Source: Candidatus Rifleibacteriota bacterium
Lineage (GTDB): Bacteria > Muiribacteriota > Ozemobacteria > Ozemobacterales > Ozemobacteraceae
Length of the DNA: 12,653 nt
Assembly (NCBI GenBank): GCA_051747585.1
Contig: JBNJGH010000097.1
Location: 1-12,653, forward strand
Reading direction: 5' to 3'
Numbering within the stretch: the first letter of the stretch is position 1; the number at the start of each line of letters is the position of its first letter. Of the stretch, positions 491-1,489 are shown piece after piece. The position numbers and the translations under genes are program-made. The notes below the pieces were generated by a model, which was not told the origin of the DNA, did not search any database, and saw nothing but the letters and a program-made list of their open reading frames with translations.

Positions 491-547
491 AAATAATTCT
501 TTGTGGTCAAGAAACTTTGTGTGAAAAAAACACTGGCACCCAGTCTA

Positions 548-565: not shown

Positions 566-718
566 GCCCGGTTCAGTAAGTTACGATAAATGTTGTAAAA
601 ATATTTAAACTATGGTTTAATCTTTGTCGAAGCATTGTTTTGTGTGTGAAAAAATAACACAAGTGTGGAATTTGAACCCTGATTTTATGTTCTTAGCACT
701 AAATAAGGGGTTTTAAAA

Positions 719-735
719 TTGGCACGGAAGTTGCT
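719..735 (+). promoter_or_regulatory. sigma54 (RpoN) -24/-12 promoter
   Basis: TTGGCACGGAAGTTGCT matches the consensus TGGCACG-N4-TTGCW exactly, with correct GG-N10-GC spacing (GG 721-722, GC 733-734). Predicted transcription start is about 746. Confidence 0.85.
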
Positions 736-745
736 CGTATATAAG

Positions 746-1060
746 TAGCTCATTGAAAAAAGAAAAAAAAGTGTTTTCCGGATCGTTTACAGCTAGATAA
801 TAGTTGGATCGCCGAATTGTCACAAAAATATTTAAAGCTCAAGTCACAGAATGAATCAGGCACGGTCATAATAATTAGATATGCAATATTTACAACTTAT
901 ATTGAAGAAAATACAACAGCATTAGTCAAAGTAAATTAACAGCATGATCCGGAAAGCTCTTTTTTATAAATTTAAGTCGTCTCTCTCAGATGACTTCAAG
1001 TATCCTCTCAAAAGATCCTCTCACTTTGTCCCCGGTTTTTTATTCCGGGGACTTTTTTTT
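746..1060 (+). ncRNA. Candidate sigma54-dependent non-coding RNA (~315 nt)
   Basis: Lies between the sigma54 promoter and a plus-strand terminator and contains no credible ORF. Helices 765-786/944-965 and 974-996 contain G-U pairs that form only on the plus strand. No family recognised. Confidence 0.6.
1028..1060 (+). terminator. Rho-independent terminator
   Basis: GTCCCCGG (1028-1035), 9-nt loop, CCGGGGAC (1045-1052), then T8 (1053-1060). The minus-strand reading has no U-tract. It overlaps the last codons of rseC. Confidence 0.8.
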
Positions 1061-1489
1061 GCAAATTTCTATCACTTTCAGACTGAGTTTATTGGCTGAT
1101 CTGGTTCTTGCTATAATCGCCAGCAAAAAAAAACCCAGGCCAAGAGCGGAAAAACCGGAGATAAATCTTGCCTGGTCTGTTAATTCAAAGCCAAAGGTTG
1201 AGCACAGGAAAGGAGTCAGCAGCAAACCCACAAAAAAAGAGGCAAGGGGAATACCAAATACCAGAATAGCCGCAAGAGTGCCTTCGCCGGGGTTTATATC
1301 AAGAATTACTTCGTCACCGATCCTGGGAGAAAATTCTCCTTTAAGAACGTCTATACGTTTAAGAGCAGATTTCTTTTCTCCGCCCAGCAAGCCGGTGCAA
1401 GCGTGACAACCGTTACATTCAGGTCTTGGTGAAACTTCTACAACAACCGATTCTTCATTAACCTTAACTACTTTGCCTGGTAAACTCAT
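1040..1489 (-). CDS. rseC: RseC/MucC family protein (SoxR-reducing system / Rnf-associated)
   Basis: 149 aa. N-terminal beta-type segment GKVVKV..VVVEV, Cys motif CNGCHAC, 'IGDEVIL' motif, then two hydrophobic helices starting 'AAILVFGIPL'. Located near the rnf operon. Confidence 0.85.
   Translation of the reverse strand: MSLPGKVVKVNEESVVVEVSPRPECNGCHACTGLLGGEKKSALKRIDVLKGEFSPRIGDEVILDINPGEGTLAAILVFGIPLASFFVGLLLTPFLCSTFGFELTDQARFISGFSALGLGFFLLAIIARTRSANKLSLKVIEICKKKSPE

Follow-up and report, generated by a model that had tools for sequence, protein, structure and literature searches.

The uncultured bacteria of Ca. Riflebacteria possess a real and hitherto undescribed family of small regulatory RNAs, a member of which occupies positions 719 to 1060 of the 12,653-nt stretch of DNA analysed here (the window), in a genome, called G000 here, of 4.1 Mb and 93.6 % completeness. 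The family is marked by its conservation, a sigma54 promoter, an upstream enhancer motif, a boxA identical to that of the rRNA leaders and a long-range stem upheld by covariation; its tail also stands alone in phages and operon 3′ UTRs, and the unit is present in RNA libraries. The explanation that we favour, with a confidence somewhat above even, is that a sigma54-fired, boxA-bearing precursor is cut to a tail with a doubled core, which would act as an Hfq-assisted base-pairing sRNA and has been copied by phages.

Within the window, the unit begins with an exact sigma54 −24/−12 promoter on the plus strand (719..735), and the start (+1) is predicted at 746 because GG lies at 721-722 and GC at 733-734. 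The pattern TGGCACG-N4-TTGC occurs eight times in G000, where 0.33 occurrences are expected from the shuffled genome. The unit closes with an intrinsic terminator on the same strand (1028..1060), made up of an 8-bp stem (1028-1035/1045-1052), a 9-nt loop and T8 (1053-1060); the minus strand of this region lacks a U-tract, and a terminator scan overlooked the hairpin because its loop of 9 nt exceeds the scanner's maximum of 8. The longest closed plus-strand ORF within the unit amounts to 40 aa (start TTG 817), and a 138-aa ORF from ATG 990, antisense to rseC, shows no conservation in homologs. The fold of 746-1060 has a z of −3.71, which none of 100 shuffles equals, while the ends and the strand of the transcript are predictions from the DNA. 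The convergent neighbour, rseC (1040..1489, minus strand; PF04246, E 1.4e-16), is counted as outside the RNA, although the antisense strand of the terminator (window 1040-1060) encodes the last rseC codons and the stop; in relatives, the end of rseC usually lies farther from the unit. Two further features of the window are a predicted 203-aa protein at 1508-2119, which belongs to no Pfam family and often adjoins rseC in relatives, and a set of nested inverted repeats at 93-398 with four arm pairs and look-alikes on other contigs, which is probably a palindromic MITE. G000 encodes rpoN and 13 full-length sigma54 activators, as well as two hfq, nusB, rho, RNase E/G and csrA. An earlier note on this DNA, made from the letters alone, had described the exact sigma54 box, about 315 nt with no credible ORF behind it, a structured region, the 8-bp hairpin with T8 whose U-tract exists on the plus strand only, and rseC as a convergent next gene, and had made its reading depend on rpoN; all of this is borne out.

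A covariance model of the tail, scored on only 62 candidates per genome, was positive in 47 of the 50 other genomes of the same family and in none of 36 genomes from other families, and a DNA search recovered homologs in 23 of 24 other same-family genomes. The 21-nt core was matched in 45 of 50 family genomes, with one to four copies each and all but one of them exact, and the exact core was also found at 11 viral and 75 metagenome loci; a reversed control pattern had no match in the genomes or in the viral contigs. Two core matches with two mismatches outside the family were left unconfirmed by the covariance model and were set aside. When the 93 distinct exact-core contexts are sorted by source, a sigma54 box accompanies 41 of 41 from genomes, 26 of 42 from metagenomes (of which one is spurious and several are truncated at contig ends) and none of the ten from viruses. 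The copies occupy two syntenic places per genome, each with a promoter and a terminator, the second G000 copy (G000:C37:25650-25901) having its own sigma54 box. The sigma54 box, the covariation of the stem and the terminator are thus kept in homologs, as the earlier note had proposed to check, but its term 'orphan' is refuted by the paralog and by the one to four copies per genome. It had also placed the unit beside an rnf/rseC locus: since rseC flanks 29 of 93 contexts, that neighbourhood is common but dispensable, and the link looks incidental. The first reading had, moreover, overlooked the boxA, the enhancer sites and the invariant core.

Searches for a previous description returned nothing that resembles this family. 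Rfam 15 at its gathering threshold gave no match on the window and, on seven homolog loci, a tRNA only, in keeping with the novelty claimed in the earlier note; sub-threshold matches were driven by the terminator, the best being PrrF with 25.1 bits against a required 90. INPHARED phages and PLSDB held no credible match. In literature drawn mostly from non-subscription journals, supplements aside, there was no sRNA paper on Riflebacteria and no description of this element, and the same limited set of journals yielded no paper that connects boxA with sRNA, sigma54 and antitermination.

Upstream of the promoter, the motif GTG-N9-CAC appears as a proximal site (646..660), a candidate binding site of the sigma54 activator, and as a distal one (519..533; PWM match, 13.6 bits), which is a direct repeat of the first. 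The motif is present in 52 of 56 distinct upstream regions, compared with 2.4 in shuffles, and 66 of its 104 sites sit 59-91 nt upstream of a sigma54 box. An enhancer-site matrix applied to G000 placed seven of its top ten matches before four sigma54 boxes; both G000 sRNAs belonged to the training set of the matrix, and the other two promoters are new. One of the latter precedes a gene on C75, where two enhancer sites and a sigma54 box (G000:C75:982-1200) precede a gene whose 274-aa product has a weak YbgF-like match, a putative further member of the regulon. The other heads an operon on C10 with EIIA, rsbW-like and ndk genes, which lies directly behind the gene for a Rec-AAA-HTH bacterial enhancer-binding protein (bEBP; G000:C10:25518-26897). 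This protein, for which no NCBIfam equivalog scored above cut-off, is probably the activator of the sRNA promoter; as a dedicated enhancer-binding response regulator, it would bind GTG-N9-CAC and fire the sigma54 promoter, giving a non-coding precursor of about 315 nt. A bEBP of the C10 type is encoded once in 48 of 50 family genomes, and 36 others have none at E 1e-130, but its co-occurrence with the sRNA is not independent support, because both are confined to one clade. The gene before the activator encodes a HEAT-repeat protein and not a sensor kinase. Promoter, palindromic enhancer site, stem covariation, rpoN and the activators together support what the earlier note had put forward, an undescribed sRNA under the control of sigma54 and an enhancer-binding protein. 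In three other genomes (G017, G006 and G015), a core shorter by one base and a terminator form the 3′ end of the bEBP-linked operon, which likewise has an enhancer site and a sigma54 box, whereas the G000 counterpart has kept the terminator alone; the tail may have originated as the 3′ UTR of this activator-linked operon.

The 5′ part of the unit resembles the leader of an rRNA operon. A boxA-like, putatively Nus-loading element lies at +3 (748..759, plus strand), and its strict pattern occurs in 60 of 67 sigma54 units, a count of 66 of 66 having come from a pattern that was widened afterwards. The consensus of the units, GYUCWUUGAWAA, is found mostly 28-32 nt from the sigma54 box and resembles the published boxA consensus GYTCTTTAANA (PMC5725501); the same motif stands at the head of the 16S leaders of G000 and three relatives, and of two G000 contig ends adjoining 23S. 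The rRNA genes of G000 (C58 end; C142 start; C312 and C173 ends) appear to be unlinked, the 16S gene being followed by a terminator and then an unrelated ORF, and the 23S-side contig ends having their own promoter and boxA. Among units, the boxA varies between UCUUU and UCAUU while the core stays constant; RNAalifold suggested, for the units of type B, that the 5′ motif pairs with the linker of the core, which was rejected because the motif alternates in this way and the core never changes.

Directly after the boxA comes a long-range stem, whose 5′ arm spans 765..786 (765-771 and 773-786) and whose 3′ arm spans 944..965 (944-957 and 959-965), both on the plus strand and both defined by fold and covariation. 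In 37 aligned units, 89.9 % of the cells of 773-786/944-957 are paired, and two-sided changes affect 9 of 14 pairs; they amount to 73 cells, where shuffled alignments have 25.6 (0 of 500 reaching the observed number), figures that are inflated by the relatedness of the units; slid registers of the alignment pair at most 60.7 %. Copies of type B rebuild the stem from unrelated sequence, and a stem of at least 10 pairs is found in 60 of 66 units, although two host units (L017 and L021) lack it and keep the tail. The stem encloses a variable, mostly unstructured insert (787..943, plus strand), which in homologs measures 70-273 nt (144-160 nt in 29 of 60) and usually has more C than G (50 of 60), and it is followed by a variable hairpin (970..1001, plus strand) that is absent from some homologs. 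By analogy with rRNA operons, the boxA may load Nus factors, which would keep the polymerase going across the untranslated, C-rich insert and promote folding of the long-range stem. The likeness to those leaders extends to the same boxA variant as in the 16S and 23S leaders of this organism; the difference is that the stem here encloses a short variable insert instead of rRNA, and that the promoter is of the sigma54 type.

The stretch is present in 12 RNA runs from three studies, four of which were examined. In each of the four, contigs that are 95-100 % alike, the longest without a differing letter, cover 761-1034; this evidence consists of assembled contigs, which are blind to strand, ends and level, and the three studies possibly belong to a single campaign. 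The C37 paralog is found in run X1 as well, and copies from relatives are found in X3. Uncut contigs span 953/954 in X1 and X2, and 773/774 in X2 and X3. For 400-704 and 1376-2200 there was no contig, and for rseC a single one of depth 5, in X1; since this stretch was the criterion by which the runs were selected, and all were RNA runs, these gaps are given no weight as a sign of a discrete transcript. Adapter remnants of one type follow 1023, 1024 and 1034 in three runs, which would fit a plus-strand RNA in a dUTP library and is likewise given no weight.

The sole contig of run X5 has a different form. It is 210 nt long (180 + 30, depth 132.9) and reads 910-953 and then 774-939, so that 953 is joined to 774 without ambiguous bases, at nearly invariant UUU/AAA pairs of the stem; 774..953 (plus strand) is accordingly listed as a candidate excised and circularized 180-nt RNA. 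The contig is suggestive only, of a circular RNA or of two real ends joined in library preparation. From it arises the possibility, compatible with the explanation we favour but in itself doubtful, that the unit has two products, the tail and an excised, circularized inner RNA with a function of its own, for instance as an Hfq or Rho sponge. The exact 180-nt cycle, its joint on the most constant part of the stem, the clustered lengths of the insert and the existence of bacterial circular non-coding RNAs such as DucS (PMC10504365) speak for it. However, the joint is known from a single contig in one of four runs, and ligation or template jumping in library preparation can join adjacent ends; the sequence of the insert is unconserved, two host units lack the long stem, and the phage copies are devoid of the precursor. 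Moreover, neither of the RNA ligases sought, RtcB and PF09414, was found in G000 at its 93.6 % completeness.

The tail would be released by cleavage in the stem or close to it, and the likeliest enzyme is the sole RNase III-domain one of G000, a protein of 147 aa (L189, G000:C19:10076-10372) that we take, from its size and gene context, to be a Mini-III. PF14622 had no match in G000. Most family genomes have a single, low-scoring RNase III-domain match, whereas the matches in sister families are higher-scoring and longer; canonical RNase III may have been lost in the family. A long double-stranded stem and an enzyme are thus both present, but the sole observed pair of ends, 774/953, gives a 3-nt 5′ overhang and not the 2-nt 3′ overhang left by Mini-III cuts (PMC4357697), and fits Mini-III only with trimming after the cut. 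According to the explanation we favour, such processing would free a 3′ fragment of about 60-107 nt, with an unpaired double AUCCUCUCA core and the terminator.

The core itself (1002..1023, plus strand) reads AUCCUCUCA-AAAG-AUCCUCUCA, that is, two 9-nt anti-Shine-Dalgarno-like repeats (1002-1010 and 1015-1023) with a 4-nt linker, and is predicted to be unpaired, with a mean unpaired probability of 0.71-0.86. In hosts and phages alike, the two repeats do not vary at all and the linker hardly does, by one base. The repeats are complementary to ribosome-binding sites of the form GAGAGGAU/GGAGGAU, and this conserved, unpaired seed adjoins a U-tailed intrinsic terminator in a genome that has hfq. 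Since the last ~60 nt recur alone, in operon 3′ UTRs of three genomes and in several unrelated tailed phages, the tail is most likely the active piece; 1002-1060 is most likely the minimal active RNA, judging by the start sites in phages, and the stemless L017 and L021 agree. The tail is probably a base-pairing repressor of ribosome-binding sites, a regulator that would cover GAGGAU-type sites, most likely with the assistance of Hfq. The two hfq paralogs of G000 are at G000:C45:10932-11105 and C6:9977-10150, the second scoring below the NCBIfam cut-off. Directly after hfq on C45, a sigma54 box heads a unit of about 85 nt (G000:C45:10719 to ~10610, minus strand) with a hairpin, a CU-rich stretch and a terminator with T9; its core is unlike that of the window, and it is probably another sigma54 sRNA.

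The search for targets gave two candidates, neither of them firm. A duplex scan of 3,253 crudely called G000 genes produced no firm target. By word counts, the full UGAGAGGAU stands before the start of two G000 genes only, encoding a SpoIIE/PP2C phosphatase and a HATPase_c_2/cNMP protein, both of which would suit a regulon with an rsbW-like gene. All five same-genus orthologs of the former retain AGAGGAU, and 11 of 30 homologs of the latter retain GAGAGG; Shine-Dalgarno 6-mers, however, persist by descent at 0-64 %, so that neither candidate is established as a target. A two-genome scan of 396 pairs, covering 1.6 of the 5.2 Mb of G014, revealed no outstanding conserved site, and among the 30 matches listed in a pattern search of the family, six resemble gene starts, with no shared ortholog.

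That no conserved mRNA site was found is one of the points in favour of the main rival to base pairing, namely that the tail is a protein decoy with tandem 9-nt sites for a dimeric RNA-binding protein, which the phages would titrate. Repeats that never vary are as much to be expected of a protein-binding site, and sigma54-driven decoy RNAs exist, among them GlmY and CrcZ. Against it stand the one-base variation of the linker and the fact that the motif is unpaired, complementary to the Shine-Dalgarno sequence and set beside a U-tailed terminator, which is the layout of Yfr1 and FlmE (PMC6778093, PMC11187230), and we regard the decoy as unlikely. A decoy of the CsrB/RsmZ type was rejected: though csrA is present, the core is not a CsrA-type site because it has no GGA, a motif that the alignment shows nowhere but in the paired stem. 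Far less probable is an action on rRNA, in which the repeats would pair with the helix-12 loop of 16S RNA during ribosome assembly; that loop is the best duplex site in 16S RNA (−19.3 kcal/mol) and the unit has the architecture of an rRNA leader, but the duplex energy is no better than that of many mRNA sites, and the fit depends on a G-U pair, without any sign of co-adaptation, because the loop reads UGAGAGGGU, or a variant of it in two, among the nine family genomes where it was found. Scarcely credible, finally, is a known or non-regulatory element, for although the 180-nt stem-closed part is of 6S-like size, the window has no RF00013 match and the only one in G000 is elsewhere, a Y RNA lacks its partner (no TROVE/Ro60 gene, with PF05731 unmatched in G000 at 93.6 % completeness), a small-protein gene is at odds with an in-frame ATG for the core frame in only 26 of 93 contexts and with scattered ORF lengths, and two syntenic copies per genome with promoter and terminator argue against a MITE. 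The 6S RNA candidate of G000 (G000:C8:42362-42563) scores 34.6 bits, below the gathering score.

Within IMG/VR, the exact core occurs in 11 contigs and a form with a short linker in four more. The viral copies keep the core and the terminator, the stem of the latter differing freely in sequence, and none has the precursor. In place of the sigma54 box, which is missing from all ten distinct exact-core viral contexts, a sigma70-type −10 ends 5-7 nt before the core in eight of ten, as against one of 66 sigma54 units, so that the phage promoter points at the first base of the repeat. The ten contexts are not independent cases, because about five lineages are represented. All five annotated phage contigs encode terminase and portal proteins, of several PHROG families, and two of them have integrases. 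A family genome, G062, holds a tail-bearing contig 71 % identical to one phage, which supports Riflebacteria as putative hosts insofar as a bin can be relied on. Temperate and other tailed phages may thus express the fragment from sigma70-type promoters of their own and so uncouple it from the host signal. One copy from a virus and one from a metagenome have a tRNA gene directly downstream. Copies placed in this manner before a tRNA gene, L072 and L135, are without a sigma54 box or a good sigma70 match and follow a sequence like the 3′ end of a tRNA, which ARAGORN left uncalled. At two other loci (L126 and L089), a type-B hairpin and core stand behind an AT-rich stretch with no sigma54 box. 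Phage matches of 22-35 nt in G001, G004 and G059 were considered as CRISPR spacers and rejected, as they belong to prophage-like terS regions; these regions (L385-L387) are akin to the sRNA-bearing phages, and the core is absent from the stretch examined. No CRISPR array was found in G000.

Several known systems share part of this design. Vibrio Qrr1-5 and Pseudomonas NrsZ combine sigma54 with a dedicated enhancer-binding protein and occur as sibling copies, as the unit does. To our knowledge, no boxA or rRNA-like processing stem has been described in Qrr, GlmY, NrsZ or CrcZ. Enterobacterial GlmY and Pseudomonas CrcZ also share sigma54, a dedicated enhancer-binding protein and sibling copies with the unit; the unit has no Rfam sequence match to any of the four RNAs. 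The closest likeness in processing is to Campylobacter FlmE/CJnc230 (PMC11187230), which is RpoN-dependent and released by RNase III from a longer transcript at a predicted stem, bears a single-stranded anti-Shine-Dalgarno motif between two stem-loops, and represses an anti-sigma mRNA. FlmE derives, however, from the flgE mRNA, whereas the main precursor here is non-coding; the unit additionally has a boxA, a doubled seed, one to four copies per genome and phage copies, and there is no Rfam sequence match between the two. Cyanobacterial Yfr1/Yfr10 (PMC6778093) likewise have an unpaired, CU-rich motif that is invariant throughout the lineage, lies between a hairpin and the terminator and is reused in different contexts, but the motif is another one, without an Rfam match, and it is the unit that has sigma54, boxA and a precursor stem. 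DucS of Bacillus altitudinis (PMC10504365) is a non-coding RNA of ~200 nt with linear and circular forms that was first seen as permuted reads, its circles joining the start site to the terminator end and having been validated by RNase R and Northern blot; the candidate circle of the unit, unlike these, is an internal stem-closed piece known from one contig. The prophage sRNAs and anti-sRNAs of EHEC (PMC4104026, PMC13502914) are reported to be phage-encoded RNAs that act in a host regulatory network; here, in contrast, several unrelated phage lineages carry an exact minimal copy of the seed of a core host sRNA.

What is new, taken as a whole, is a sigma54 sRNA family with an rRNA-leader-like precursor, 3′ UTR siblings and minimal copies borne by phages. 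For this uncultured lineage, it amounts to a predicted complete circuit of activator, binding site, regulon and sRNA siblings. If the boxA is functional, an sRNA precursor would be added to rRNA and the few mRNAs under Nus control; the published survey of boxA (PMC5725501) states that it did not consider non-coding RNAs. A validated internal circle would join the very few circular RNAs of bacteria, in a genome where the two ligases sought were not found. A bolder version, which we offer as a speculation and hold to be improbable, is that the unit is a miniature rRNA operon, whose output is made dependent on Nus antitermination by the sigma54 promoter and the boxA, and in which a Mini-III-type cut in an rRNA-like stem yields two stable products, a covalently circular 180-nt RNA and a double-seed regulator; if so, several unrelated phages would have captured the regulator independently, and its constitutive expression would override the signalling regulon of the host. 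The presence of an exact host sRNA seed in unrelated phages would offer a clear example of a core riboregulator captured by phages.
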